64,000 nt of DNA from Torpedo marmorata (taxonomy: Eukaryota): the NCBI GenBank assembly GCA_977017645.1, contig OZ360219.1:111476001-111540000 (forward strand). Direction: 5' to 3'. The notes under the pieces are model-generated. The model was given only the letters and a program-made list of their open reading frames with translations, did no database searches and was not told the DNA's origin. Numbering within the stretch: position 1 is the stretch's first letter; every line of letters begins with the position of its first letter. Shown piece by piece: positions 2,934 to 64,000 of the stretch. The translations under genes were made by a program, and so were the position numbers.

Positions 2934-5357
2934 ATCGGGGGCTGTAGTCTGGTTGGTGGGAACTGTAGTCCAGTTGGTGGGGACCGTAGTCCGGTTGTTG
3001 GGAACTGTAGTCTGGTTTGTGGGGGCTGTAGTCCGGTTGGTTGGAAATGTAATCCGGTTGGTGGGGACTATAGACTGGTTGGTGGGGACTGTATTCCAGT
3101 TGGTGGGGACTGTAGACCGGTTGGTGGGGACTGTATTCCGGTTGGTGGGGACTGTAGACCGGTTGGTGGGGATGGTAGACCTGATGGTGGGGACCGTAGA
3201 CCGGTTGGTGGGAACTGTAGTCTAGTTTGTGGGGACTGTTGTCCGGTTGTTGGGAGTTGTAGTCTTATCGTTGGGGGCTGTAGTCCGGTTGGTTGGAAAT
3301 GTAATCCGGTTGGTGGGGACTGTAGTCCTATTGTTGGGAACTGTAGACTGGTTAGTGGGGACTGTAGACCGGTTGGTGGGGAATGTAGACCGGTTAGTGG
3401 GGACCGTAGACCGGTTGGTGGGGACCGTAGACCGGTTGGTGGGGACCGTAGACCGGTTGGTTGGGACCGTAGACCGGTTGGTGGGGACCGTAGACCGGTT
3501 GGTGGGGACCGTAGACCGGTTGGTGGGGACTGTATTCCGGTTGGTGGGGACTGTAGACCAGTTGGTGGGGACTGTATTCCGGTTGGTGGGGACCGTAGAC
3601 CGGTTGGTGGGGACCGTATTCCGGTTGGTGGGGACCGTAGACCGGTTGGTGGGGACCGTAGACCGGTTGGTGGGGACCGTAGACCGGTTGGTGGGGACTG
3701 TATTCCGATTAGTGGGGACTGTAGACCGGTTGGTGGGGACTGTAGACCGGTTGGTGGGGACCGTAGACCAGTTGGTGGGGACTGTATTCCGATTAGTGGG
3801 GACTGTAGACCGGTTGGTGGGGACCGTAGACCGGTTGGTGGGGACCGTAGACCGGTTGGTGGGGACTGTATTCCGATTAGTGGGGACTGTAGACCGGTTG
3901 GTGGGGACCGTAGACCGGTTGGTGGGGACTGTATTCCGATTAGTGGGGACTGTAGACCGGTTGGTGGGGACCGTAGACCGGTTGGTGGGGACTGTATTCC
4001 GATTAGTGGGGACTGTAGACCGGTTGGTTGGGACCGTAGACTGGTTGGTGGGGACCGTAGACCGGTTGGTGGGGACCGTAGACCGGTTGGTGGGGACTGT
4101 ATTCTGGTTGGTGGGGACTGTATTCCGGTTGGTGGGGACTGTATTCCGGTTGGTGGGGACTGTAGACCGGTTGGTGGGGACCATAGACCGGTTGGTGGGG
4201 ACCGTAGACCGGTTGTTGGTGACTGTATTCCGGTTGGTGGGGACTGTAGACTGGTTGGTGGGGACTGTAGACCGGTTGGTGGTGACTGTATCTGGTTGGT
4301 GGGGACCGTAGACCATTTGGTGGTGACTGTAGACTGGTTGGTGGGGACTGTAGACTGGTTGGTGGGGTCGGTAGACCGGTTGGTGGGGTCAGTATTCCAG
4401 TTGGTGGGGACAGTATTCCAGTTGGTGGGGACTGTATTCCGGTTGGTGGGGACCGTAGACCAATTGGTGGGGGCTATATTCCAGTAGGTGGGGTCTGTAT
4501 TCCAGTTGGTGGGAACTGTAGTCCAGTTGTTGGGGACTGTATTCCAGTTGATGGGGACTGTATTCCAGTTGGTGGGGCAGTAGTCCGGTTGTTGGGGACC
4601 GTAGACCTGTTGGTGGGGACTGTAGTCCGGTTGGTGGGGACTGTAGTCCGGTTGCTGGGGACTGTAGACCGGTTGCTGGGGACTGTATTCCAGTTGGTGG
4701 GGACTGTATTCCGGTTGGTGGGGACTGTATTCCGGTTGGTGGGGACCGTAGACCTGTTGGTGGGGACTGTAGTCCGGTTGGTGGGGACTGTATTCCGGTT
4801 GGTGGGGACTGTAGTCCGGTTGGTGGGGACTGTAGTCCGGTTGGTGGGGACTGTAGTCCGTTTGGTGGGGACTGTAGACTGGTTGGTGGGGACTGTAGTC
4901 CGGTTGGTGGGGACTGTAGACTGGTTGGTGCGGACTGTAGACCGGTTGGTGGGACCGTATTCCGGTTGGTGGGGACCGTAGACCGGTTGGTGGGACCGTA
5001 TTCTGGTTGGTGGGGACCGTAGACCGGTTGGTGGGACCGTATTCTGGTTGGTGGGGACTGTATTCTGGTTGGTGGGGACCGTAGACCGGTTGGTGGGGAC
5101 CGTAGACCGGTTGGTGGGGACCGTAGACCGGTTGGTGGGGACTGTATTCCGGTTGGTGGGGACTGTATTCCGGTAGGTGGGGACTGTATTCCGGTAGGTG
5201 GGGACGGTAGACCGATTGGTGGGGACCGTAGACCGGTTGGTGGGGACCGTAGACCGGTTGGTGGGGACCGTAGACCGGTTGGTGGGGACTGTATTCCGGT
5301 TGGTGGGGACTATATTCCGTTTGGTGGGGACTGTAGACCGGTTGGTGGGGACTGTAC
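2934..5357. repeat. 21-bp G-rich minisatellite, roughly 115 units
   Basis: Consensus GTAGACCGGTTGGTGGGGAC(C/T) with GTATTC and GTAGTC variants. The unit is a multiple of 3, giving spurious 7-aa-repeat ORFs on both strands. Confidence 0.97.
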
Positions 5358-8207: not shown

Positions 8208-8275
8208 GTGCGATCGCGGATTCACTGGAGAAAGATGTGCAGAGACTGTACCCATGAGGGTCTTTATTCCTGAAC
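8208..8275 (+). CDS. NRG1: Neuregulin 1 EGF-like domain alpha exon (68 nt)
   Basis: Acceptor ccctccag|G, donor C|gtatgt. Encodes CDRGFTGERCAETVPMRVFIPE, resembling recalled mammalian CQPGFTGARCTENVPMKVQNQE. Confidence 0.9.
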
Positions 8276-9093: not shown

Positions 9094-9152
9094 GTGTCCA
9101 AATGAGTTTACTGGTGATCGCTGTCAAAACTACGTAATGGCCAGTTTCTACA
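9094..9152 (+). CDS. NRG1: Neuregulin 1 EGF-like domain beta exon (59 nt)
   Basis: Polypyrimidine tract + cag|G, donor A|gtacgt. Encodes CPNEFTGDRCQNYVMASFY, the NRG1-beta signature. Confidence 0.98.
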
Positions 9153-12780: not shown

Positions 12781-13859
12781 TTCTCTGGGTGGGCCAGGCA
12801 TTAATTTGTTGATGAACATTCTGTGATAGGGACACTATTTTGCAATATCTTCATGAACCTGTTGCCATCTGACCCACTTCTCTAAAAGTGCAATCCTTGC
12901 TTCTGAAATCCCCTTATTACAATGCATCAATCCTGTAAAAAAATATCCTCAACACTTTCATGTTAAAACGGCTACTCTCTTAGATCATAAAATCCCACCC
13001 TTTTTAGAACTACAAATCGCACACTTTTACACCACAAAATCATTGTACTCCATCAATTTCCTTCTAACGATTTTCACTCCTGGCAAAATATAATTTTCCT
13101 ATTTAATTCTGACATTCGCTACTATCTCAGTGCATCTAATCCTATTCTCCTGCTCTCTCCCCATACCTTTTGATTTTCCATCCCTCCAATTCTACTTTCC
13201 TGCAAACAATCGTATGAAAAAGGAGCAGGAATAGACGCTTGAGCCTTCAATAAAGATCATGGCTGTCGTGATTGTAAGGTGCACTGCATTCCATTTGAAA
13301 CAACCTTTCACCCCATGCTTATCGAGAATCCACACACCATCTGTCTTAAGCAATGTTTAAAGACTCCGTAGTTTCATGGTCACCATTGATGAGGCTTGAT
13401 TTTTTTTAAATTTTAGATTTATTCAATTAAATGTCTCGGTTGCTGAGTTGGGATTTGAATTCATGTTTCCAGATCATTAGTCAAGGCCTCTGGGTTATTT
13501 ATGCAGCCATGTAACCATTACACTAGCACAACACTTCTAGATAGTAAAAACATGTGGTTCTTTCAAGGAGATGAAATCTATTGGCCTTAGTAGTGTGACT
13601 CAGACCTACAGCTATTTCATTGACTGTTCTGTGAAATAGTCTATCAGTCTGTTCAATTCAAGAGCAATTTGGGCTAAGCTTTAATTGCTGGCCTTATCCT
13701 GATATCAGCATTCTGAAATTGAAACAAAAAGTCATGAATTCATTGGATGAGGAACAACACAAACATATTCCTCCTGTACAGCTTTAAACTTTACAGCATG
13801 AACATTGATTTTTTTACATTTAGTAAACTCCCACCTCTATCAGATTAAACTATTTCCAC

Positions 13860-18593: not shown

Positions 18594-18617
18594 AACATCT
18601 TGGAATTGAATTTATGG
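18594..18617 (+). CDS. NRG1: NRG1 linker-1 microexon (24 nt)
   Basis: Long U/C tract, ggcag|AACATCTTGGAATTGAATTTATGG|gtatgg. Splicing beta-linker-TM gives KHLGIEFMEAEELY. Confidence 0.97.
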
Positions 18618-22530: not shown

Positions 22531-23708
22531 AGACAAACTTCAGATTTTAGTACTGATTTTCTAGAATGGTTCATTTTTGTAAAATAAAAACTTTGTAATA
22601 CAAACTTTTATTTTAAACTTACTGATGAACATATCCCTAGTTAAGCTGGCCTCTGTTCTGAAATTTACCTTGGAGGTGCTTTACTCAATGATGTTTCTTT
22701 GCCAGTGATATAAACCCAGGGTAGATGTTGGGTTGCATGTAAAGGCAGTCCAGTCAATAAGGTTCAAAATGATTAACAGCTTTCCTCTTGCCTGATCCAG
22801 GGCTTCAAGAATGATGCAATGTATTTGGCAGCGGCAACTTGTCAGCCGGAAGGGCCTGTTACCGTGCTCTATCTCTAAAATTAAAAAAATAAAATTTAAA
22901 ATGAAATTAAAAATGCTTAAAATTGGAGCAAATGGATCTTTTCAAGCATTTATGTATTTCTTAGTGCAGAGTCTAATGAATCGGCAACAAGTAACTCTGA
23001 TATGTAACTATACTGCAAGAAACATCAATGAATAAGAACCCAATAACATTTTAACTCTAGTGTTATGTAACATTGAAGGCATTTTTTTATACAAATGTAC
23101 TGCAAGAGTTTGAAAAGGTGATCTCTGGCTTATATAATGCTTTTAGTTTTCTTTTAAGCTTATGCTTAAGTAGAAGAGTTGAATCAATTGAAAAGGGGAG
23201 CTGCAGCTTAATTGGACAAACAATGCATATTTACTGTAAAAAATGTATGGAGAGAAGTTTATGATCAAGAATATTGTTATATATTTACAAGTACATAGAT
23301 GTGCTAATTTTTAAAGAATGAATAGATTTCAAAATAAAATGGGTGTCAACAGTTGCATTAACATTTCCTTTTGGCCACTGATGGATACAGTCATCTATGC
23401 AGATACCACAGCTATAATTTACAATAAAAATCGTGAAGTACAGCACCCTGTCAGTTCTATTCTTCTACTTTGGCACAGCATAGACCCTAAGAAACATAAA
23501 AGCATAGCATAAGCTGGGAATTACCTTTTACCAAAAAAAATGCATTGCGGCGAGTTTCCATTTTGTGCATTGAACTGCAAGTGGGGAATGGAAACCAGAC
23601 AAGCAATTTCTTCCCATCAATAGAGTGAAATTATTGCATTTTTATAACATTGCGAGCCAAATGACAAGCCTCAGACTGTGACCTGCTGCCTTCTGTTTCT
23701 CTCTTCAG

Positions 23709-23811
23709 AGGCTGAGGAGCTGTACCAGAAGCGCGTTCTGACGATTACAGGCATCTGCATTGCCGTCCTGGTGGTTGGCATCATGTGTGTAGTGGCGTAC
23801 TGCAAAACAAA
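23709..23811 (+). CDS. NRG1: NRG1 transmembrane exon (103 nt)
   Basis: ctcttcag|AG...AA|gtaatc. Encodes AEELYQKRVLTITGICIAVLVVGIMCVVAYCKT(K). Confidence 0.98.
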
Positions 23812-25754
23812 GTAATCCAGAGCTTCATTCTCTAAGATAAAGCCTGATTAACTTAAATTTGTCTCTTCTCTTATTTCCATTGCCTAGGCAAATTTCCTTT
23901 GTGTTTGAAAATCAGCTTTCTTTAAAAAATCATCCTTTCCACAAAACAATATTTGAGAAAAGTAAAGCAGTTTAGAGACATCTTATGCTGCAATAGGATT
24001 ATTTTGCCTCCAGTTGGGTGGGCACTCAACAGGAAAGAAATTTCCTTTTGATCACCAGTGTTAAGCATGGACCATTATTTCAACAGTATCCTTGACTTCA
24101 CTTTAGATTCTGTCAACGAGTGGACCCAAATGTCAGGAGTTGTATAGCATACTGCATCAACTCAGCATATGTCTAAAACTGTGAACATGAGGCAAAAGTC
24201 AGCCCCTTCTTGATTTTTTAAAAACAGCAGAAAAACTATGGTTCGATAACCTAAGTTGAGGAGGCAAACTCTTCTAAAAGTGGCATTGGCAGAAGTCTGG
24301 GAGTTGGGATCTGTTCAATGCATCTGGCTGTCCTCACCCAATACAGCCCTCAATCCCTAACAAGTGTTTGGTAGGGTTAATGGGAATACAATTTAGCATT
24401 GGCATGGTCTCAAGATGGGATCAGCCATCTGCTGAAATCCATTCAAATAAAGTCAGACAGGTTTAATAAGGTTTAGTTTTTGCCAACTTGTCCATTCAGC
24501 ACCACGACCCAGAATAATTTAACCTGCAGTTTGTCATTCAGAATAAGAAGAATACCTATATTTTGTGATGTGTATAATGAATTACAACTCATTCCTAAAC
24601 TTACTGTCAGTTCTTACTAGTAACCTTCCAGCTAGTGAGTTCTTGATCTCAGCTAGATAATCTTGGAGTAGAGACCCTGCAGCATCTTGGAGAAGAGGAA
24701 TGAAGGTTAGAAGACACTCTAATCTCCATCTTACCAGAGTTCAACAGGACATTGCCTACCCAGTTTCTCAGCTGTATCTTGTGTGTGGCCAGTGACTAAA
24801 GGGGGGGGGAGAATAAACCCGAATTCTTTCCGCCCAAAACAAAACAAGACCAATTTTCAACTTTTATATTTTCTGCCAACAGTTCTACATTATGTGGAAT
24901 GGTCAAGAATTAAATTCAAAGTGCAATATCTTTTTTGGCATAAAGGTTTTTACCAATTGGATAATCTGCACATGGGGCAGGTTAGTGTGCTGGTGGGGGA
25001 TCCAAATCTAGAGAACATAAAGATATGATCCCAGTCATTCTTCCCTGGTCAGTAGCATTGAACCTGTGTAGCTGCTGACATGTTGCTTCCTGTCCCCAGA
25101 ATTCAGTTCTATTGACTTTATTGAGACAGAGAGTATATAGGACTACAAATCAGAAACATGTTTCTAATGAAAGGTAATGTCCCAAGGGGAATTCAGGAGA
25201 AACTCCTACATCCACACAGTAGATAGAATGTGGAATTCACTACCCAGTGGAGAAGCTGAGGTAAATAGTGTTGATATAATTAACTCATATACAAAGAAAG
25301 AGGAAGAACTAATATAAAATCTGCATCACAAATCCTGGTGCAGATCATTTGGGTATAAAGTCCTATCTCTGCATTGTAAATTGTATGTATTTCTGCTTAC
25401 TTCCACATGCAATATTTGGCTTGAAGTTGCTTTTGAACCTTTCATTTACAAATGTATTACACAACCTGTCCTATGCAAACGCAACACATTTTCAGTCAGT
25501 ACAACCTTTCATTCAGTAAGTTCTTCTCTGTATTTATTTTTAGTAACATTTGGTTTGGACAGGATGCAGAGGAAGGATTAAATAAGACGAATATATGTGA
25601 AAGGTTGGCCGTTCAGGTTGAATGCTACACTGGTGCTGAAGGAAAGGGGTGCTGAAAATTCATCCCTGGGATTTTACTATTCTAACGTAAAGGAAGTGTC
25701 CAAAATTATGTTTATTTTTTGTCCTGATTGCATTGCTTCTGCTGCCTTTTACAG

Positions 25755-25881
25755 AAAACAGAGAAAAAAGTTACATGATCGGCTGAGGCAGAGTCTCCAC
25801 TCTGAGCGAAACAACATGGTAAACCTTGTAAATGGACCCCACCACACAAATCCACCAAATGAAAACGTTCAGTTGGCAAAT
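25755..25881 (+). CDS. NRG1: NRG1 cytoplasmic exon 1 (127 nt)
   Basis: tttacag|A...AAT|gtaagt. Encodes KQRKKLHDRLRQSLHSERNNMVNLVNGPHHTNPPNENVQLAN, in phase with the TM exon. Confidence 0.97.
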
Positions 25882-26706
25882 GTAAGTTCACTTGGCATCA
25901 ATATCCATCAAAAGCAGAAATACATTGTGCGCCATGTATGTGAATTACAACATAGTTTTTTGAGCATTCAGATGGTGTCACTGATCTTTGATTCTGTGTG
26001 TAACAGATACACCTCAGATATAAGTGATTCTGTAATCGATCAGCCACATACTACTGTAATGTCAAACAGATTTCAAGACATAGGCAATGTCCAGCAACTA
26101 CATTCAATGAAAGTAAAAAGCTTTGATTTTAAATAAATAAAATGCTTTAACTTCTCTCGCTTATACATTCTGGAGTATGATACCAAACAGAGTGAACGGC
26201 AGGCTTTGAGTGCATTCAACCCTTCGGGTGGGTTGAAGCTCTTCAGGGACCTGTGTACAAATCTACGATCAGTGCCATCAGTACAATAAATACAGGGCAT
26301 CAGTGCCACAAGTCGTCACACTGCAGGTTAATCACTTGTGCTGTCCACAACTTTATAGGATTGTCCCAGGTTTTGTGGATGCAACATAGCATTACCACAT
26401 CATGTAACTGCAAGTATGATATAATAAAAAAGATTAATGGTGGGATGTCAGTGGATGTAGTATAAAATGAACAATATCTTACACTATTGTCATATACCAT
26501 CTGGAGTTAACAGTTTTTTTACTTGTGGACATACATTATTGCAGTAACAGGATTCTGCCATTGTGTCAGTATAATTGATGCTGAGCAACATAAGGAAGTT
26601 AGTCATTAATTGGCCACTGTATATTGCCCCTAGTGGCAGAATCTGGGACAGGATGATGATAAAGTGTGGAGAATAAAAAACAGGGTTGATGTAGGTTAGT
26701 GTAAAT

Positions 26707-27081: not shown

Positions 27082-27516
27082 GCGTAAATGGACAATTGAT
27101 ATTGGTGAGGAATCGATGGGCCAAAAGGCCTGTTTCCTTGTGTATCTCGCTGACATGATATCATGTCAAGTGACCAAGGTTTTAACAAACCTTGGAAGAG
27201 GAAAGTGAAGTAGAGAGGCATACAGGTTTAAGAAGGGGAATGCAGAGTTTAGAGCCTTTGTGGATCATTGAAAATCAAGGATGTCCTAGAGGGGTCAGAA
27301 TTATCCAAAACCTGGAGAATGGAGAGCCAGATAAGGTGAAGGAAGTAGTTCCACTTACAGCATCTAAGAAGCATCTGGAAGTATTTGGATGCCCTCTGCA
27401 CACTCTTGAATCCTGGTTCCGTGACCTAGTTCCCTTGCCAGAACGTGAATCGCCAAGGTATATCAGTCAATGAAGCACTGCTCAAAAATGGGCATAGTAT
27501 AGGAAGGTAATTGGGT

Positions 27517-28416: not shown

Positions 28417-28869
28417 AAGATGTCTGCAGCCCCGCAGCATCTGGACAACCCATTCCCATCCATCCTGCCAGATTCCTAAATACTCGCTCCCGTTTACAGA
28501 GTGTCTAAGATGTCTGCAGCCCCGCAGCATCTGGACAACCCATTCCCATCCATCCTGCCAGATTCCTAAACACTCGCTCCCGTTTACAGAGTGTCTAAGA
28601 TGTCTGCAGTCCCGCAGCATCTGGACAACCCATTCCCATCCATCCTGCCAGATTCCTAAATACTCGCTCCCGTTTACAGAGTGTCTAAGATGTCTGCAGC
28701 CCCGCAGCATCTGGACAACCCATTCCCATCCATCCTGCCAGATTCCTAAATACTCGCTCCCGTTTACAGAGTGTCTAAGATGTCTGCAGCCCCGCAGCAT
28801 TTGGACAACCCATTCCCATCCATCCTGCCAGATTCCTAAATACTCGCTCCCGTTTACAGAGTGTCTAAG
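28417..28869. repeat. 90-bp tandem repeat, 5 near-identical copies
   Basis: Units start at 28417, 28507, 28597, 28687 and 28777; only three single-base variants seen. Confidence 0.97.
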
Positions 28870-30690: not shown

Positions 30691-31020
30691 ATTAATAATA
30701 GAAAACTTTAATTGATATGGTACTATTACTAACCTTTAGCAATTGCTGTGATGTAAAATATAGTAACTAAATGAACAAGCAGAAATCTATCTGTACTGAC
30801 TTATATACTTTGCCATACCCTATTGTATTCAAACATCTAGACAAGATGTGATTATACCGTGCACAATCAATGCCATTTTATTACCTTAGAATAAAAACGA
30901 GGAGTGGTCGATTTCTGGAGCACACCAGCACTTGCCAAAACCTGACTTCCAAATGACTTCAACTTACCTACGTTCAGCCAGTGAAGTGAGAGCCCTCAGT
31001 GATAGAAGTATATCTACCAA

Positions 31021-31308
31021 ATTCAAGATTCCTTTATTGTCATGTAATGGTACAGAATATGTAATATTATACGAAATTTCCTTCTGCCTGCCATAAGGCA
31101 AACAAAGTGTTGCAATTAGTGTCAACCGGTGCCACTTACAATAAGAACAAAAGAAAAGCAAAAGAGAATCCTTTCAGAGTCATTGAGTGTCTGTGGATTC
31201 GCCTCCAGTGCTCCCGCAGCCTCTGCAGCCGCACAGACGCCTATTCGATTCATCGGCAACCCGAACCCCTGATCCAAACCTCCAGCATGATCAGGAAGCC
31301 TTCAGCAT
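31021..31308 (-). mobile_element. Non-autonomous retroposon copy, 5'-truncated
   Basis: Same tail (attcctttattgtcatg) and body as 27517 and 47895. Confidence 0.7.
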
Positions 31309-31396
31309 AGTGGGTCATGGGCTAACATGGAGCCTGAGAAAGTTTCCATTCCCCTTCTTCATTAACATAATCGTGTACAGCTGTTTCTCTGTTCAG

Positions 31397-31418
31397 AGGC
31401 TGAGGAGCTGAACTGCAA
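31397..31418 (+). other. Candidate 22-nt pseudo/microexon copied from the NRG1 TM exon
   Basis: 31381-31410 matches 23693-23722 at 29 of 30 nt, then AACTGCAA|gtgagt. Usage is unknown. Confidence 0.4.
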
Positions 31419-32970
31419 GTGAGTCTCCAAAGAGAAGCAATATCTTAAACCTTTTCTGATCCAGCATCCCTCATCAGAATCAGAGCCCCATGATACAGGC
31501 CAGGTCCCGGTATAAAATGGATGATATAATGCCATATGTTCTCATGGATTCCAATGTGGTTCTAATTGCTCCAATGGGTATGAAGTTGGTGTACAGCAAT
31601 GCGTAATGTGAGCCAATATTCGAGCAGGGATTTCTGCACGAATTGGCCAGAAAAGTTGACAGTAGTGGTAATGATATCATAGCCAACATTCATTAATGAT
31701 AGAATTACAAAAGTTTTTGCCCAAAGGGGAGGCCATTTAACTCATGCTGTCCAGTCTACCTGAAACTAATCCCTCTTTATAGTGCTTGTTCTGTTGGCTT
31801 TATTGTATCAAGTGTTTATCCAAGTAATTCTTAAATGTGATAAAGGTTTCTACAATTACCAGTCTTTAAAACAATGACTTCCAGACCATCACCATTCCTT
31901 GGCTGAAGAAAATATTGCCTTAACCTTCCTCTAATCCTTTGTACAAAACCGTATCACCAAGATATTGAATGATTTGCTCAGACATATAGGTCCTTCCTAG
32001 TCCAGGATCGCACAATTTGATTAAAGCGCCTCTCAGCCTCCTTGTTGGAACCCTCTTCTAGCCAGCCTTTCATCAAAAATAATCCTTTCCATCCTTGGTA
32101 GATTTCCTCTGAACCCTCTCTCATACTCTCCAATCCTTCCTGTTGTGCAACCAGAGCTGTAGGCTGCTGAAATGCATTCCAAATGGTTCATTGGACGCAA
32201 ATTGCTTGATTCATGATGATAAATTCAGGATCCATGACATTGCCAAATGCATCTCAGGATGTTACTCAGCATGAAAAAAAGCACTTTTGCTTTATATTAT
32301 TTTGTAACATTACTGGAGGTTGGCAAATTGACACTGACAGTCAGATCTGCTTTACATTCGAACTGTCTTCAAAGAGATTTGCAATTAGTAATTCTGATAT
32401 TTATTGAACAGCTGCCAGGTGTTTTAAGAAGGAAAACCTCTATATGATGTGATTGTTGGGGAGGGGGGTGGCAAATTTAACACCTGCATTATGACACCCA
32501 AGTTATAAGTGAAACTAGTATCTAACTAATTTCTGTTTGGTACACAATAATACTCACAGTATATCTGAGACACAATATAATGAGGCACTTTATACTGAGA
32601 TTGCATTGTATTTCAAGTTGTAGCTTCTATGTGTTTGGTTTTCTTTTATACCTGGAACATTTCAATACCCAATGCACACGAAAGGTTAATCAGCTCACCA
32701 AGATCCTGAGTGCATCATGATAAAGAAGGGGAGAATTTTGTAAAATGAACACAAGCTCTAAATTTGACTCCTGTCAGTGAACTGTTGATGGGACTCTGTA
32801 TTGTTACCATTTCAATCAAGTATAGTGATCAGGAAGAGGGAGGGGGTAGATCTTGGATAATTTCCAGGGTGGTCAATAAGTGTGGCCTGTGGGGAGAGTG
32901 GACATTAGGATGGGCATCTTGTTATGATCCTGAGCATCCAGTGTTCTAAACTTGTGCTCTCTATTTACAG

Positions 32971-33101
32971 CAATATATTTTGAAAAACCCTGGATCTACT
33001 GAGCACGTCATTGAGCGGGAAACGGAGACCTCATTCTCAACAAGTCACTACACATCGACAGCCCATCACTCTGCTACGGTCACTCATACTCCCAGTCACA
33101 G
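32971..33101 (+). CDS. NRG1: NRG1 cytoplasmic exon 2 (131 nt)
   Basis: tttacag|CAA...AG|gtaaaa. Encodes QYILKNPGSTEHVIERETETSFSTSHYTSTAHHSATVTHTPSH(S). Confidence 0.97.
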
Positions 33102-33569
33102 GTAAAAAACTTGGATTAAACAGTGTCCTTAAATCTATCAGCAAGGAACCACATGACGTTCAAAGGGAACACAAAATGAATTGGATAGGGCACTGAAAAT
33201 CCTCATCGATCCCCTGTTGATAACACTTGGGAGTCAATGCACTTGGCCAGCATTCCAAATCCTCAAGAAAATGCAGGCATGAAAACTTCAAAGTTTAGAA
33301 GATCCACCAACCACCCCTTCACTTCTCTCCCAACCTTAATGCCAAAATCCTCTTTTCAGGGGAAAGTGGAAACAAGGCCGTCCAGCTGTATGAACACAAG
33401 GCTGGTACCTGATACACAGAATACAGGTCCCATCCTGCCAATAGTATGGTTCTTGTTCGATTTCCAGAGAGCAGTAAAGTTTGTAAAATTCACACAAAAC
33501 CTGGTTAGAGAACTCAGTATTTTAAACAGATGCCCAGCGTGTAAAAGATAATTCATAACTGTGATAACA

Positions 33570-34455: not shown

Positions 34456-34621
34456 AATTGAAGTATATGCTGATATGATTAAGGTACCATAGAGAGGGTG
34501 AAAGTTAGGGTACAAACTAACAAACTTCAACATCTGGGCTGAACAAATAATTTCTCTGCTTTAATTCTATCATTCTGTGTAATGCCTACAAGAACAGAAT
34601 TGAAATTCCAAGGTCAAAGTA

Positions 34622-35613
34622 CCGTATTTGACGGCATATAAGACCCCCCTTTTTTTCCAACTAAAAACCACCCTGGGTCTTATACGCAAAGGTGACATTT
34701 TGGTGCCGCCATTTTTGGGCACTGAGTGGAGTCCAGGAAGCGGGCCCGCAGCTTCGCGGACCACCTTCCCTTGGGTGGCCCGTGCTTTCCAGAGTCGCCG
34801 CCGCTGCCACTCACTTCCCCCGGTAAGAAGGCTCGCTCTCTCCCTCCTTCCCGCCCGTTCTCTCCCTCCCGTTTGCTCTCCCCGCCCACTCGCTCACTCT
34901 CGCCCGCTTTCTCTCCGCCCGTTCGCTCTCCCCGCCCGCCCGATCTCTCCCCGCCCTAACCCGCTCACTCGCTCGCTCTCCCCACCCGCCCGCTCGCCCT
35001 CGCCCGCTCGCCGGCTCGCTCTCCCCGCCCGCCCGCTCGCTCTCTCGCCATCGCTCGCTCGTTCGCTCTCACCAATAATACTTTGAGGGGAGCACTGGGC
35101 CTCGATGATCAGGCTTTGTTTGACGAGCACGGACCCTCAAGCAAATTGAATGAGGCGCGGGGGCGGGTGGCAGTGAGCGAGCGGACTGTCAAGCTCAGCT
35201 CAATAGGCCACTCGCTCACTGTCACCCGCCCCCACGCCTCAGTCAATCTGTTCGGGGGGCTGTGCACATCGAACAAAGGCTCAGCGTGGAGCCTGATCAC
35301 CGAGGCCCAGCGCTCCCCTCAAAGTAAAGCAAGCGATCGATTGTCTGTTCCCCACGACGGTGGGCCTGGGCCCTGCCCGTTGTCCTGGCTTCTCTCCCTC
35401 CCACCCTCGTGCGCTCGCAGGTCTCGGCACACCTGTCAATCAATTAGCGTTTGGACGGTGGGGGGGAAGCAGCTTGAGCCTCGGCGTGCGACGGGCAGGA
35501 GGACGTGTTGCTGCTGTGAAGGTAAATACACTAAAAAACATTTCCTGAAATCTCACGCTAAAAATGGGGGGGGGTCCTATATGCCAGTGGGTCCTATATG
35601 CCGTCAAATACGG
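34622..35613. mobile_element. Tc1/mariner-superfamily (Tc2/pogo-like) non-autonomous element
   Basis: TIR ccgtatttgacggcatata(a/g)gaccc at both ends; TA TSD (34620-34621, 35614-35615). GC/CpG-rich interior with no transposase. Confidence 0.9.
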
Positions 35614-35703
35614 TAATTAAATCTCGAAAGGGAGTTACAATGAAGTGAATTAAACAAGAAAAGGGCTCAGGTTCGAAATGTTGGTTACCTTTTACTTCCT
35701 ATG

Positions 35704-37189: not shown

Positions 37190-37338
37190 ACCCTCAGACA
37201 TAAGCACAAAAATGTGGCAGTTCAGGAAGAATGCACTTCCGTCAGAGGTTCCATCGTTTAGATCAGTTGTTGAACCACAAACTCTGCTCTCTGGTGGCCA
37301 TTAAAAAAAATTGAATGGCACTACTTGAAGAAAAGCAG
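37190..37338 (+). mobile_element. Deu-domain SINE remnant (AmnSINE1/SacSINE1-like) interrupted by CR1
   Basis: gcacttccgtcagaggttccatcgtttagatcagttgttgaacc...ggtggcc...atggcactacttgaagaaaagcag resembles the recalled Deu core consensus. Confidence 0.5.
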
Positions 37339-38426
37339 AGGTTGGATAGGAGATGCCAGAGAGTAGTGGTGGAAAATTGTTTGTCAAATTGGAGGCCAGT
37401 GACTAGTGGAGTGCCTCAGGGATCGGTACTGGGTCCATTGTTGTTTGTCATATATATTAATGATCTAGATGATAGGGTGGTAAATTGGATTAGTAAGTAT
37501 GCAGATGATACGAAGATTGGTGGTGTTGTGGACAGTGAAGAAGGATATCAAAGCTTGCAGGGGGATATTGGACAGTTAGAAGAGTGGGCGGAAACATGGC
37601 AGATGGAATTTAATACTGATAAATGTGAGGTGCTACATTTTGGTAGGATTAATCAGCAAAGGTCATACATGTTAAATGGAAGACAATTGAGAAGTGCAGT
37701 AGAACAGAGGGATTTAGGAATTCTAGTACATAATTCCCTGAAAGTTGAGTCACACGTAGATAGGGTGGTGAAGAAGGCATTTGGTATGTTGGCCTTCATA
37801 AATCAGAGTATTGAATATAGGAGTTGGGATGTCATGTTGAAGTTGTATAAGGCATTGGTGAGGCCAAATTTGGAATATTGTGCACAGTTTTGGTCGCCAA
37901 ATTACAGGAAGGATATAAACAGAATAGAGAGAGTGCAGAGGAGATTTACAAGAATGTTGCCTGGGTTTCTGGGTTTGAGTTATAGGGAAAGGTTGAACAG
38001 GCTGGGACTTTATTCCCTGGAGCGTAGAAGGTTGAGGGGTGATTTGATAGAGGTATTTAAAATTATGAAAGGGAAAGATAGAGTCAATGTGGACAGGCTT
38101 TTTCCATTGAGAGAGGGGAAGATTCAAACAAGAGGGCATGGATTGAGATTGAAGGGGGAAAAGTTTAGAGGAAACATGAGGGGGAATTTCTTCACTCAGA
38201 GGGTGGTAGGAGGGTGGAACGAGCTTCCGGCCGAAGTGATAGATGCAGGTTCAATTTTAATGTTTAAGGAAAAGATGGATAGGTATATGGACGAGAGAGG
38301 TGTGGAGGGTTATGGGCCGGGTGCGGGTCAGTGGGACTAGGTGGGAGAATGTGTTCGGCATGGACTAGAAGGGCCGAACTGGCCTGTTTCTGTGCTGTAA
38401 ATGTTATATGGTTATATGGTTATATT
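37339..38426 (+). mobile_element. Young 5'-truncated CR1-clade LINE (RT C-terminal half + 3'UTR)
   Basis: Uninterrupted ORF with VTSGVPQGSVLGP, YADD, RPNLEY and WN.LP motifs; (gttatatg)n octamer tail. Confidence 0.95.
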
Positions 38427-38869: not shown

Positions 38870-39073
38870 TTGGAGTACAGGCCAGACAGAAAGTGTCATC
38901 TCGGACAGTCACTCGGTGCTTGTGATGTCATCGATAGACACCAGCAGGCAGACCAGCCCAGCCAATCACAGAGGTCGCCTCAATGGAGTGGCTGGTCGTC
39001 GGGAGATGTTTATCTGTGTGAGGAATTCGAGGGATACTCCGGACTCTCTCCGAGACTCACCGCACAGTGAAAG
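38870..39073 (+). CDS. NRG1: NRG1 cytoplasmic exon 3 (204 nt)
   Basis: ctggcag|T...AG|gtagac. Encodes WSTGQTESVISDSHSVLVMSS...RGRLNG...RDTPDSLRDSPHSE(R). Read-through meets TAG at 39075-39077 (c-type tail). Confidence 0.97.
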
Positions 39074-39739: not shown

Positions 39740-40379
39740 GTTTGTCTCTGCCATGACCACTCCAGCCAGAATGTCGCCCGTGGATTTTCGAACCCCCATG
39801 TCTCAAAAGTCTCCCAGTTCTGAGATGTCTCCACAAGTCTCCAGCCTGACGATATCCATGCCCTCGGTACCCATCAGCCCTTCCATCGAGGAAGAGAGGC
39901 CCCTCCTTTTGGTGACACCGCCCCAGCAGCGGGACAAGAGGCAGGAAGCTTACAGGCAACACCGCAGTTCGGCTAGGGAGAGCGCCAGCGTCCCAGCCAG
40001 CCCGCAGAGGATGGTCGAGGATGACGAGTACGAGACCACACAAGAGTATGAGCTGGCGCTCGAGCACCCCAAGAAAGGGGCCAGCAGCAGCAGAGGGAAA
40101 AGAACAAAGCTTAATGGCCAAATATCACACAAAATGGAAAATGAGAGCAATCCAAGCTCAGACAGCAATAGCTCTGACAGCGAAACGGAAGATGAACGAA
40201 TAGGTGAAGAGACGCCATTTCTGACCATACAGAACCCCGTGGCAGTCAGTGGAGAATCAGCTCCTGCATACCGATTGGCTGAGAACAGGACTAACTCTAC
40301 CAATAGGTACTCAGCACAGGAAGAGTTGCAGGTCAGGCTGACCAATGTAATGGCTAATCAGGACCCAATTGCTGTCTAA
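39740..40379 (+). CDS. NRG1: NRG1 terminal exon, a-type cytoplasmic tail
   Basis: gttacag|G; FVSAMTTPARMSPVDF...EEERPLLLVTPP...EDDEYETTQEYE...ETEDERIGEETPFL...ANQDPIAV*. These are hallmark NRG1 a-tail motifs. Confidence 0.98.
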
Positions 40380-41392
40380 AACCACATCGATGCACCAGTA
40401 AAACTTTATTTTATATAATGAAGTACTCCGAATACTTTACTTTAAATTAAACATTTTATTTTATTTTAGCAGAAGAACCTTGCAGCTGGTAGAAAGTCTA
40501 CAAGTTTTTATAGATTAAAAAATATATATATGTAAAAAAAGTTAGCATTCACAATACTAATGTGCCATATGTAGCGTTTTTACAGTATTTCAACACAGAA
40601 AGATATCAATGGTGCCTTTATGTTACTTTCTGCTGAGAACAATTAGTGCATCAGTTTCAAGCCTTTGATAAGATGAGGGATTTCCTTCAGAATGTCCAAT
40701 GTATTCTTTCTGGGTGATAGAACTTAGAGTTTCTGTGGCATTCAGACTGGGATATAACAAGTTGTTTGTCAGCCACAGCAAAAGGGGAATAAAACTAAAA
40801 CAAACACACACACACACACACACACACAGGGGGCGGGGGGAGTGAAGGAGATGTCTGACTCTTGAGTTTTGAACTGTATGTTGCAGCTGTCATTTCTGAT
40901 GGGACCTAACAGATTATAAAATGAAACAAACTTTCATGTTAAGAGAAACCTGAACTAGAGACTTAAAGTTAGAATCTTTGTGCACTCCCACTGGGGATAC
41001 ATCTCATGAGGAAATCTGTCACAAGCAACAAACCACACTTCACATCCAGCTGTCTTTGAAGGTAAACCGATGTAAAGATTTNNNNNNNNNNNNNNNNNNN
41101 NNNNNNNNNNNNNNNNNNNNNNNNNNNNNNNNNNNNNNNNNNNNNNNNNNNNNNNNNNNNNNNNNNNNNNNNNNNNNNNNNNNNNNNNNNNNNNNNNNNN
41201 NNNNNNNNNNNNNNNNNNNNNNNNNNNNNNNNNNNNNNNNNNNNNNNNNNNNNNNNNNNNNNNNNNNNNNNNNNNNNNNNNNNNNNNNNNNNNNNNNNNN
41301 NNNNNNNNNNNNNNNNNNNNNNNNNNNNNNNNNNNNNNNNNNNNNNNNNNNNNNNNNNNNNNNNNNNNNNNNNNNNNNAAAGCTGAGGGGGT

Positions 41393-60745: not shown

Positions 60746-61436
60746 TCAGTTATAAAGTTTAGCATCAAGAAAGACAATCACATTATCTTTCCCTTTTATA
60801 TGTTTTATTATCAAATCATATTGTTGCAAAATTAGACTCCAATTCAACAACCGTCGATTCTTATTTTTCATTTTACAAAGAAAAACTAATGGATTATGGT
60901 CAGTATACACTATGAGTGGTTTTTGAGCTGTACAGATATAAACATCAAAGTGTTGTAGAGCCAACACAAGAGCTAACAACTATTTTCCTATGGTTGAATA
61001 ATTCCTTTGATGATCATTGAGCTTCTTCGAGAAGTTGGATACTGGATGGTCAATGTCCTCTTTGTTCTGCCTCTGTAACAGCACCACACCCACAGCTTCT
61101 TCGCTGGCATCCACGGCTAAAGAAAATGGCTTTTCTAAATCAGGTGACTTAAGCACAGGTTGGTGGCATAACATGGCTTTCAATTTGACAAATGCTTCCT
61201 GACAACCTGTCGACCATACAAATTTTTCTCCCTTTCGAAGCAAATTTGTGAGAGGGAGCGCAAGATCTGTAAAGTTTTTACAGAACTTGCGGTAGTAGCC
61301 AATCTTTCCCAAGAACCTCCTCAGAGTTTTCTTACCAGTTGGAACAGGGAACTCGGAAATAGTCACAACCTTTACCTCTACTGGCACCAACTACCCCTGT
61401 CCTACTACATAACCCAGAGAATTAACAGTCCCATGA
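60746..61436 (-). pseudogene. Gypsy pol RT C-terminus/connection and RNase H, disrupted
   Basis: LRRFLGKIGYYRKFCKNF...LAVDAS...VGVVLLQ...SKKLN..QRNYS...VYTDHNPL...HIKGKDN, with a stop and a frameshift. Confidence 0.9.
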
Positions 61437-61631
61437 CCCTCTCTGAAACTGGCTTTATCTGTCTCCTCCTTACCCCGATCAATAACCAGCACCTCTGGTA
61501 AATGTTCAGTCTCTTTGTGCGACACCCGTTCAAAATATGGCTTAATCATATTCACATGACAGACCTGTGTGTCTCATCTGCAATTAGGTGTTTCTATGAC
61601 ATAGTTGACATCATTAATTTTTGACTTAACT

Positions 61632-62570
61632 CTATAGGGTCCTGAAAATATAGCCATGAGGATTTGAATGAATGGGAAACAGAACTAATACGTTCTCACC
61701 AGGTTTCAAAGTTCTCATCTTAGCCTTTCGATCATACCAAACCTTCATTCTCTGTTGAGTGGCCTTTAAATTCTCCTTTGCCATCTCACAAGCCCAATGC
61801 AACCGATCCTTAAATTTGGAAACATAATCTAACAGATTTAAATGCACATCACTATTACTCCACTGTTCTTTTAATAATCTTAAAGGACCTCTCACCTCAT
61901 GTCCGAATACTAACTCAAATGGACTAAAACCAAGTGATTCTTGGACAGACTCCCTCGCTGAAAATAACAACAAATGAACCCCCTCATCCCAATCCTTTTC
62001 CTTCTCACAACAATAGGTTCTAATCATGTTTTTCAAAGTCGAATGGAACCTCTCCAAGGCCCCTTGACTTTCTGGATGGTACGCAGAGGATACAATCTGT
62101 TTAACTCCCAGTCTATCAACCACTTGTTGGAAAATGCCTGACATGAAATTACTGCCCTGATCTGATTGAATTTCCCTTGGCAAACCTACCAAGGTGAAAA
62201 ACTTTAACATAGCCTTTACAATTGCTTTTGCTTTAATATTTCTCAGAGGAATGGCCTCTGGAAATCTGGTGGCTGCGCACATAATTGTTAACAAATACTC
62301 ATTCCCCACTTTGGTTTTGGGCAATGGGCCAACACAGTCCACAATCACTCTCGGGAAAGGCTCACTGAAAGCAGGGATAGGTTGCAAGGGTGCCACCGGG
62401 GGACCCTTATTAGGTTTACCCACCATCTGACAAGTGTGACAGGCCCGGCGAAAGCTTACAACCTCCCTTCTCAAACTGGGTCAATAAAATTGTTTCATTA
62501 TCTTCAGTATAGTTTTCTTCACCCCAAGGTGACCACCTAAGGGTGTGCTATGAGCCAAAGTTATTATTTC
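61632..62570 (-). pseudogene. Gypsy integrase (zinc-binding + DDE core), upstream of RT
   Basis: LAHSTPLGGHLG, CHTC, VIVDCVGPLP, IQSDQGSNF, YHPESQGALERFH. Confidence 0.92.
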
Positions 62571-62645
62571 ATCCCTATATACTTTAGGGATCACTACCTG
62601 CTGCACTACTGCCCATTCTTCACTGGCAAGAACATCACATGGTCT

Positions 62646-63425
62646 TCACTTTCTCATCAACCCCCCATCTTTTTCACAATAACCCACTGGCACCTTCTTA
62701 TTCTCCTCTTCAGAGAGAACCTTATCCCTCACCCCAGCAAGATCAGGATCGTCCTTTTGCCTTGCTATTAGCTCCTGTTGGGATAGTGACAAATCTGTGC
62801 CTTTAGGTGTCTTATTAGTGGATGGATGTAACACAGGAGATTGCTCAACCTTTTCCAGGTGTCTTTGATTATCACTGACGTTTTCTTTCACCAATTTATT
62901 TTCCACTGCCTTCTTTACAGTAGCATTTCTCTTAGACATGGCCCTGGTTATGGCACATGCTGGATAAATATCAGAGTCCTTCTCTGACTTATCAATGACT
63001 GGCTTAGTGGTCATTAGCACTGCAGGAACTACTTTACCCTCAGACAAGTCATTGCCTAGCAACAGTGAGACTCCTACTGGCAACTCTGATCTCACTCCTA
63101 TTATAACAGCTCCTTCCACCAAGGCTGAGTCCAACACTATTTTGTGCAAAGGAATGGACTCAACCTCACCCCCAATTCCTTTAATCAAATTCATTTCACC
63201 GGTGTCAGTACCTTCACAAAATTCCAAGACACGATCTAACACAAGTGACTGAGCAGCTCCAGTATCTCGCAAGATTTTCACTGGAACTTGCTTTGCTCCT
63301 GCCTTAACTGAAACAAAACCATCAGTCACAAAAGGTATAAATACATCCCTAACTTTGTCTGTAAATTTGTCTCCTTCCTGGGTGTTATGCCTCTTCTCAC
63401 TGAATACAAGCATTAGGTGTTGCAT
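62646..63425 (-). pseudogene. Gypsy aspartic protease region
   Basis: ILRDTGAAQSLV catalytic motif and LLLGNDL. Confidence 0.85.
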
Positions 63426-64000
63426 CCTTTTCTCGCTTCTTTTTCAACACTGGACAGCTTGCTTGCATATGACCAGCCTTCCTACAGTAGTGGCAAATGG
63501 GACCCGAAGGGTTTTCCCTTTTCCACTTCCCTTCTTCTCTTTCCTTAACAACACTTCCAAATTTACTTTCCACTTCCTTGGGATTATCCACAGTGACCTT
63601 TTGGAAAATTCTGCCTGACGTCCACTTAGGCTTGTGGGTTAAAGCATATTCATCTGCTAACTTCGCTGAATTTTGCCAAGTTTTCACCTCCTTTTCATCT
63701 AAGTATGCCTTAATATCCTCAGGAACACACCTTTTTATCTCCTCAATTATTATCAATTCTCTCAATTGATTGTAATCATTGTTTACCGCCTTAGATGTGC
63801 ACCACCGGTCAAAACACACAACCTTTTCATAGGCAAACTCTGTGTAAGATTGGGTTGCTGATCTTTTAAAATTTCTAAACTTCTGTCTATAAGCCTCTGG
63901 AACTAACTCATAAGCCTGGAGTATAGCCTTCTTCACCATTTCATAATCAGCAGCTTGCTCCGTGGTAAGAGTACAATAAGCTTGCTGAGCTTTTCCTTTA
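63397..64000 (-). pseudogene. Gypsy gag: SCAN-like capsid C-terminal domain and CCHC zinc knuckle
   Basis: PEAYRQKFR...FDRW...LRELIIIEE...AKLADEY; CHYCRKAGHMQASC. Continues beyond the window. Confidence 0.88.

Follow-up and report, generated by a model that had tools for sequence, protein, structure and literature searches.

The closest described relatives of the sequence patch reported here are insertions whose bases were copied from other DNA of the same genome. In the "complex" class of MMB-TI events a short insert combines pieces of several templates, up to five in the published cases, in mixed orientation and with the template left intact, and such multi-template insertions occur as human germline variants; the templates in that study were sought within about 100 bp (PMC8421209). 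Local insertions made by SD-MMEJ, or polymerase theta, are described as the outcome of repeated annealing and short synthesis in which hairpin-forming sequence is involved, from templates no more than about 30 bp from the break (PMC5728401). LINE elements may carry extra nucleotides at their 5' junctions, as do about half of the zebrafish ZfL2-2 inserts reported, many of these bases being copied from the flanks (PMC4245944). Class 2 templated sequence insertion polymorphisms, as presented in PMC5110952, consist of one fragment from a distant locus, leave the donor intact and come without poly(A) or target-site duplication; the same source knows RNA-derived patches at breaks. Finally, human NRG1 is reported to possess a poison exon in its class VII transcripts, which is 111 nt long, lies upstream of the EGF exons and is found in long reads (PMC11360300).

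The patch is located in a 64,000-nt stretch of the forward strand of the electric ray Torpedo marmorata (assembly GCA_977017645.1, contig OZ360219.1, positions 111,476,001 to 111,540,000; hereafter the window), which comprises the 3' half of NRG1, a gene with a role in synapse and myelin development. Pfam places the last exon in its Neuregulin family (E 3e-64); this exon shares 97% identity with the protein of Narcine bancroftii and 90-92% with those of stingray, devil ray and sawfish. The exons from beta on, when joined in silico, give an open frame that runs to the normal stop. The following exons bear on the analysis.

8208-8275, mapped exon: NRG1 alpha exon
9094-9152, mapped exon: NRG1 beta exon
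18594-18617, mapped exon: NRG1 linker-1 exon
23709-23811, plus strand: NRG1 transmembrane (TM) exon, intact and 103 nt long, serving as template for the 30-mer described below
25755-25881, plus strand: NRG1 cytoplasmic exon of 127 nt, next upstream of the patch-bearing intron
32971-33101, plus strand: NRG1 131-nt exon, downstream neighbour of the patch-bearing intron
38870-39073, plus strand: NRG1 204-nt exon
39740-40379, mapped exon: NRG1 last exon

Several other features were seen along the way. One frame at 13445-13465 resembles the linker-1 peptide, lacks flanking splice sites and is probably a chance likeness. Within NRG1 introns, a 30-nt inverted repeat (34617-34646 and 35589-35618, 28 of 30 identical) encloses about 1 kb of GC-rich sequence and resembles the termini of a non-autonomous DNA transposon, and a 341-aa open frame at 37315-38340 on the strand of the gene contains a reverse-transcriptase domain (Pfam RVT_1, E 7.5e-14). 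Several minus-strand frames at 60980-63443 resemble what we take to be pieces of an LTR-retrotransposon pol gene. Tandem arrays are present at 2937-5356 (115 copies of a 21-nt unit) and at 28417-28869 (five copies of a 90-nt unit at 98%).

The patch itself lies in the NRG1 intron between 25881 and 32971, about 7.7 kb downstream of the TM exon. Its parts, and the template from which two of them come, are as follows.

31331-31457, no strand assigned: mosaic insertion of about 130 bases with approximate limits, made of short pieces from the TM-exon region (7-mer cover)
31342-31354, minus strand: inverted exact copy (13 of 13) of intron 23583-23595, the 3' arm of the hairpin listed last, outside the would-be exon
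31375-31382, minus strand: inverted exact copy (8 of 8) of TM-exon bases 23718-23725; at that length alone chance is possible
31381-31410, plus strand: direct copy (29 of 30) of 23693-23722, which comprises 16 intron nt with the acceptor of the TM exon and the first 14 nt of that exon
31397-31418, plus strand: exon-like 22-nt unit (pseudo-exon candidate, in silico) between AG and GTGAGT
31409-31421, plus strand: direct exact copy (13 of 13) of intron 23571-23583, providing the last bases of the 22-nt unit as well as the donor's GTG
31431-31446, plus strand: probable further piece like intron 23597-23612, near the diagonal of the preceding 13-mer; weaker (13 of 16) and possibly due to chance
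23554-23595, plus strand: template with a predicted hairpin, 11-bp stem (23554-23564 with 23585-23595), -19 kcal/mol

The original prediction had described 31381-31424 as a copy of the TM exon which has lost the membrane helix but kept both splice sites. The acceptor copy is real: 31381-31410 and 23693-23722 are identical at 29 of 30 positions, far beyond chance, and in a blastn self-search of the whole window the match extends to 31 of 33 (E 1e-6). When the same stretch (-16 to +14) of the other seven NRG1 acceptors was compared with the window, the best match had at least 9 mismatches in 30, as against a single one for the TM acceptor. The splice sites of the 22-nt unit are likewise where they had been placed, with the acceptor AG at 31395-31396 and, after 31418, a donor in which CAA is followed by GTGAGT, and the unit does share its phases with the 103-nt TM exon, the two being equal in length modulo 3. 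The internal deletion, by contrast, did not hold up. It had been read from the motif ACTGCAA near the end of the TM exon (23799-23805), which matches over 7 nt only, the next bases being different, whereas an exact 13-nt match in the intron covers the same bases together with the GT. This second occurrence had been noticed as a 12-mer at 23572-23583; the repeat is indeed there, its length however was understated, as it is a 13-mer spanning 23571-23583. Because the 3' part of the unit thus comes from the intron, as does the GTG of its donor, which is not that of the TM exon itself, and because inverted pieces of the same neighbourhood flank it, an origin by internal deletion is unsupported. Homology to the TM exon is not colinear from acceptor to donor but ends after 14-17 exon nt, and the copy does not sit between the same exons as its parent, from which it is separated by the 127-nt exon.

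How far the patch extends was measured by a 7-mer cover test in which the 30-mer was hidden and the 104 bases flanking it were compared with the template region 23343-24042. The template covers 90 of these 104 bases, compared with control means of about 49-50, a value reached by none of 1348 other queries, none of 72 other templates and one of 2000 dinucleotide shuffles. A 13-mer from within 250 nt of the template is present in each of the two 50-nt stretches that adjoin the 30-mer, an arrangement found neither in any of 1204 control template windows nor in any of 2914 random query pairs; each of these 13-mers occurs just twice in the window. With the 30-mer and both 13-mers hidden, 64 of 78 bases are still covered at 7 nt (equalled by 6 of 1382 controls); at 8 nt, with the long pieces hidden, the excess is not significant (170 of 1382 controls equal it), and a summed-score version of the statistic is tied by one of 109 controls. 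The best template for the mosaic is 23500-23899, ranking first among 558 candidate windows. Judged by these comparisons of sequence, three long pieces (30, 13 and 13 nt) are certain and further short pieces, individually unassignable, are likely; there may be four main pieces and about seven more at 7 nt, in both orientations.

Both 13-mers derive from the predicted hairpin, which precedes the TM exon by 115-155 nt and has a z-score of -2.06 (10 of 200 shuffles fold as well). The patch alone folds poorly (z +1.68). The inverted 8-mer, which is the source of an extra AG at 31379-31380, overlaps the 30-mer by 2 nt, and the direct 13-mer does so too; the overlaps at these two joints are short enough to arise by chance. 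The templates are intact, the TM exon and its intron being whole, so that the pieces were copied rather than moved. Two other regions were considered as sources. The reverse complement of 27224-27242 has two overlapping stretches in common with the patch, one of 13 nt at 31347-31359 and one of 10 nt at 31443-31452, on either side of it; it gives no extended alignment and may be a second template or chance, about one stray 13-mer being the expectation for 64 kb. Three 10-mers at 26406-26481 were rejected as a template for want of a coherent alignment. A search of 31000-31600 against Rfam returned no matches, and a search of 23400-23950 a single sub-threshold one (E 0.82), nothing above chance.

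On the features examined the patch fits a complex templated insertion of the MMB-TI type. It contains at least two pieces from templates of the same genome, in either orientation, with the template left intact, and thus resembles the class described in PMC8421209 in being a short germline insert of mixed orientation. It differs from the events presented there in that its templates are 7.7 kb away, it may hold more pieces and the overlaps at its joints are only 2 nt. With SD-MMEJ as outlined in PMC5728401 it shares the signs of repeated annealing and short synthesis and the hairpin-forming sequence, but the distance of 7.7 kb far exceeds the limit of about 30 bp given in that source. It is like the class 2 insertions of PMC5110952 in having an intact donor and neither poly(A) nor target-site duplication, and unlike them in that it strings together very short stretches of one and the same gene instead of consisting of one fragment of a distant locus.

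It is probable, if well short of certain, that the mosaic at 31331-31457 results from template-switching repair and that the 22-nt unit is an accidental by-product, spliced rarely or never. This is what the original prediction offered as a fallback, a neutral templated insertion, and it is the reading that the sequence supports. A break or stalled fork near 31330 would have left a 3' end that annealed over a short run of bases close to the TM exon, perhaps at a site opened at the hairpin 23554-23595. The end would then have copied 7-30 nt, been released and annealed anew on either strand for several rounds, until it was rejoined near 31457 with loss of the remaining repeat copy that adjoins the patch. 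One piece would have brought the acceptor and the next the GTG, and the bases that follow would have completed the donor. Any rare inclusion of the unit after exon 25755-25881 would introduce an early stop and lead to removal of the transcript by nonsense-mediated decay. The inverted 13-mer, which lies outside the would-be exon, is as well conserved relative to the template as the unit is, and the high identity is therefore not special to the splice signals. The distance of the template speaks against a repair scar, as 7.7 kb is far beyond the 30-100 nt that are usual for local templated insertions.

But could the same functionless mosaic have been made in another way? The main rival as to origin starts from the repeat next to the patch.

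31022-31307, presumably minus strand: interspersed repeat copy, cut at 31307 where the sister copies (from 27516 and from 47904) continue (alignment)

The copy is 71-74% identical to its sisters at 27516 and 47904. Its left end bears what we take to be a retroelement-like tail, from which the strand is presumed and the class is putative; Pfam, searched with a single forward-strand frame from this copy and another from one sister, and Rfam gave no matches. As the rival account has it, the patch would consist of extra bases added at the truncated 5' joint when the retroelement inserted, copied from nearby DNA or from NRG1 pre-mRNA. We regard this as possible but doubtful. The patch begins just beyond the cut end of the repeat, after 24-35 unexplained nt, and the situation resembles the LINE 5' junctions of PMC4245944 in that templated bases lie near a cut repeat end in a fish genome, with the ZfL2-2 inserts showing how common such bases can be; the RNA-derived patches of PMC5110952 would provide a precedent for copying from a transcript. 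Moreover, the main pieces run inverted, inverted, direct, direct, an order that could reflect copying of one sense strand from both ends, although 5 of 16 random orders would fit this equally well, and the 7-mer pieces alternate in orientation. The patch further departs from the LINE junctions described in that it is longer, its template is 7.7 kb off and the repeat is of putative class, its identity as a LINE being no more than putative. A target-site duplication around the repeat and the patch, as would accompany an element with its extra bases, was sought and not found; 19 of 110 controls equalled the best score.

The relative ages also count against an origin at the time of repeat insertion. 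In 248 ungapped columns the repeat copy has 41 private changes, its sisters 23 and 14, whereas the main pieces of the patch differ from their templates at one of about 60 bases. So few differences have a probability of 3e-4 at a divergence of 16.5% and of 0.014 at 10%, figures that are biased because the pieces were found by their exactness and because subfamily differences inflate the 41. Taken with this bias, the comparison suggests that the repeat copy predates the patch, which is another respect in which the patch is unlike the LINE junction bases of PMC4245944.

A separate question is whether the 22-nt unit, whatever its origin, is used as an exon. Between exons 25755-25881 and 32971-33101 it could act as a regulated poison exon and reduce NRG1 by way of nonsense-mediated decay, a role which we consider improbable. 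The three frame outcomes that had been claimed for the unit all came out in silico as stated. Placed after exon 25881 it brings a stop that precedes the last junction by 342 or 211 nt, in either case by more than 55 nt, the larger figure being that for the neighbouring exons just named; spliced from linker-1 to the unit and on to exon 32971 the frame stops at once, 322 nt before the last junction; and linker-1 followed by the unit, the 204-nt exon and the last exon stays open to the normal stop. The donor is strong: scored as a count of consensus matches rather than with a trained model, it has 8 of 11 plus a wobble, compared with 5-8 for the seven real donors scored, and motifs predict two branch points, at -36 and -32. 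Of 138 other places with an acceptor-like site, only 2 have a GTRAGT 15-50 nt further on, and 15 have one at 15-250 nt; the spacing of acceptor and donor and the matching phase of the unit are a post hoc coincidence, but a real one. The parallel with the human class VII exon is that the unit, too, would add an early stop to NRG1 mRNA. That exon, at 111 nt and upstream of the EGF exons (PMC11360300), is however not its counterpart, the candidate unit being 22 nt long, downstream of the TM exon and known from DNA alone.

The acceptor side points the other way. The AG-free zone in front of the unit measures 14 nt, compared with 23-78 nt at eight real acceptors, and it is this short because the inverted exon piece brought the AG at 31379-31380. 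In human genes AGs are depleted in the zone that begins beyond 6 nt past the branch point and ends more than 5 nt short of the acceptor, and new AGs there silence or shift acceptors (PMC9284458); the extra AG falls in this zone. In addition, the sole mismatch between the copied and the real TM acceptor puts a purine into the pyrimidine tract. The unit is very short for an exon.

Exons of 22 nt usually require special enhancers. Poison exons are by definition conserved, as PMC8819188 has it, while the patch looks young. The peptide of the unit is present in none of 313 neuregulin proteins (193 full-length and cluster-member sequences and 120 short ones), and an insertion at its exon joint in none of the 184 that were measurable among the 193, a check which is blind to transcripts targeted for decay and probably includes no isoform of this species. 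From the sequence, then, the unit probably has no function. A recursive-splicing site at its acceptor was rejected because the two bases after the acceptor are AG and not GT. Use of the extra AG at 31379-31380 would define a 38-nt unit (31381-31418) behind a poor pyrimidine tract; in silico this keeps the frame to the normal stop when placed between 25755-25881 and 38870-39073, and gives an early stop before exon 32971.

An effect of the patch without splicing is less probable still. It might serve as a decoy exon, with its strong donor binding U1, or the inverted 13-mer might pair with an arm of the hairpin that precedes the TM exon, 31342-31354 being fully complementary to 23583-23595. Such a duplex of 13 bp over 7.7 kb would have to compete with the local 11-bp stem, its target is at least 115 nt from the TM acceptor, and neither region has an Rfam match above chance. 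Just as slight is the chance that the patch is an artefact of assembly or library. It is known from one assembly alone and the window does contain one gap (41082-41378); a mosaic of many pieces from two strands, with substitutions relative to its template, would nonetheless be an unusual consensus error, and the flanks of the patch continue into normal intron on both sides. A word search of sequencing runs with 31300-33200 listed ten runs from four studies, one of which contains over half of the words and may be the source sample while nine contain small shares; no RNA run was among those listed, and the listing weighs neither for nor against the patch.

The least likely proposal of all, that the unit is a TM-exon duplicate which lost its helix by internal deletion and now yields soluble or TM-less NRG1, has in its favour the fitting phases, the frame left open by way of the 204-nt exon and the presence of ACTGCAA in the TM exon, and has against it the better intron match at its 3' part, the absence of the peptide from the 313 proteins, the stop that the soluble form would meet 322 nt before the last junction, the two or three constant exons that would have to be skipped for the soluble and TM-less forms because the unit lies downstream of the 127-nt exon, and the TM-less form that the gene can already produce by the usual read-through after the beta exon. 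As background, TM-less NRG1 is represented by the linker-3 forms (PMC11360300), and the main zebrafish isoforms described in PMC5112773 are TM-bearing only. A predicted NRG1 isoform of the shark Heterodontus francisci, X4, joins the common EGF exon straight to a cytoplasmic exon of the 127-nt type; the alpha/beta, linker and TM exons are skipped, which gives a TM-less form with tail by plain skipping.

If read as a repair scar, the patch offers a neat germline case of a templated insertion in many pieces, copied from 7.7 kb away, and is an event of a known kind. A literature search, in which few subscription papers were covered, turned up none on this element or on the birth of an exon from such a mosaic. 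We think it unlikely that the repair patchwork built a complete splice unit in one step which now serves electric rays as a poison or membrane-less exon of NRG1. Were the 22-nt unit spliced, however, break repair would here have built a working exon from scratch, at a time that could be dated across the rays, and this would be a case of exon birth by template switching in which no transposon supplied the splice sites.
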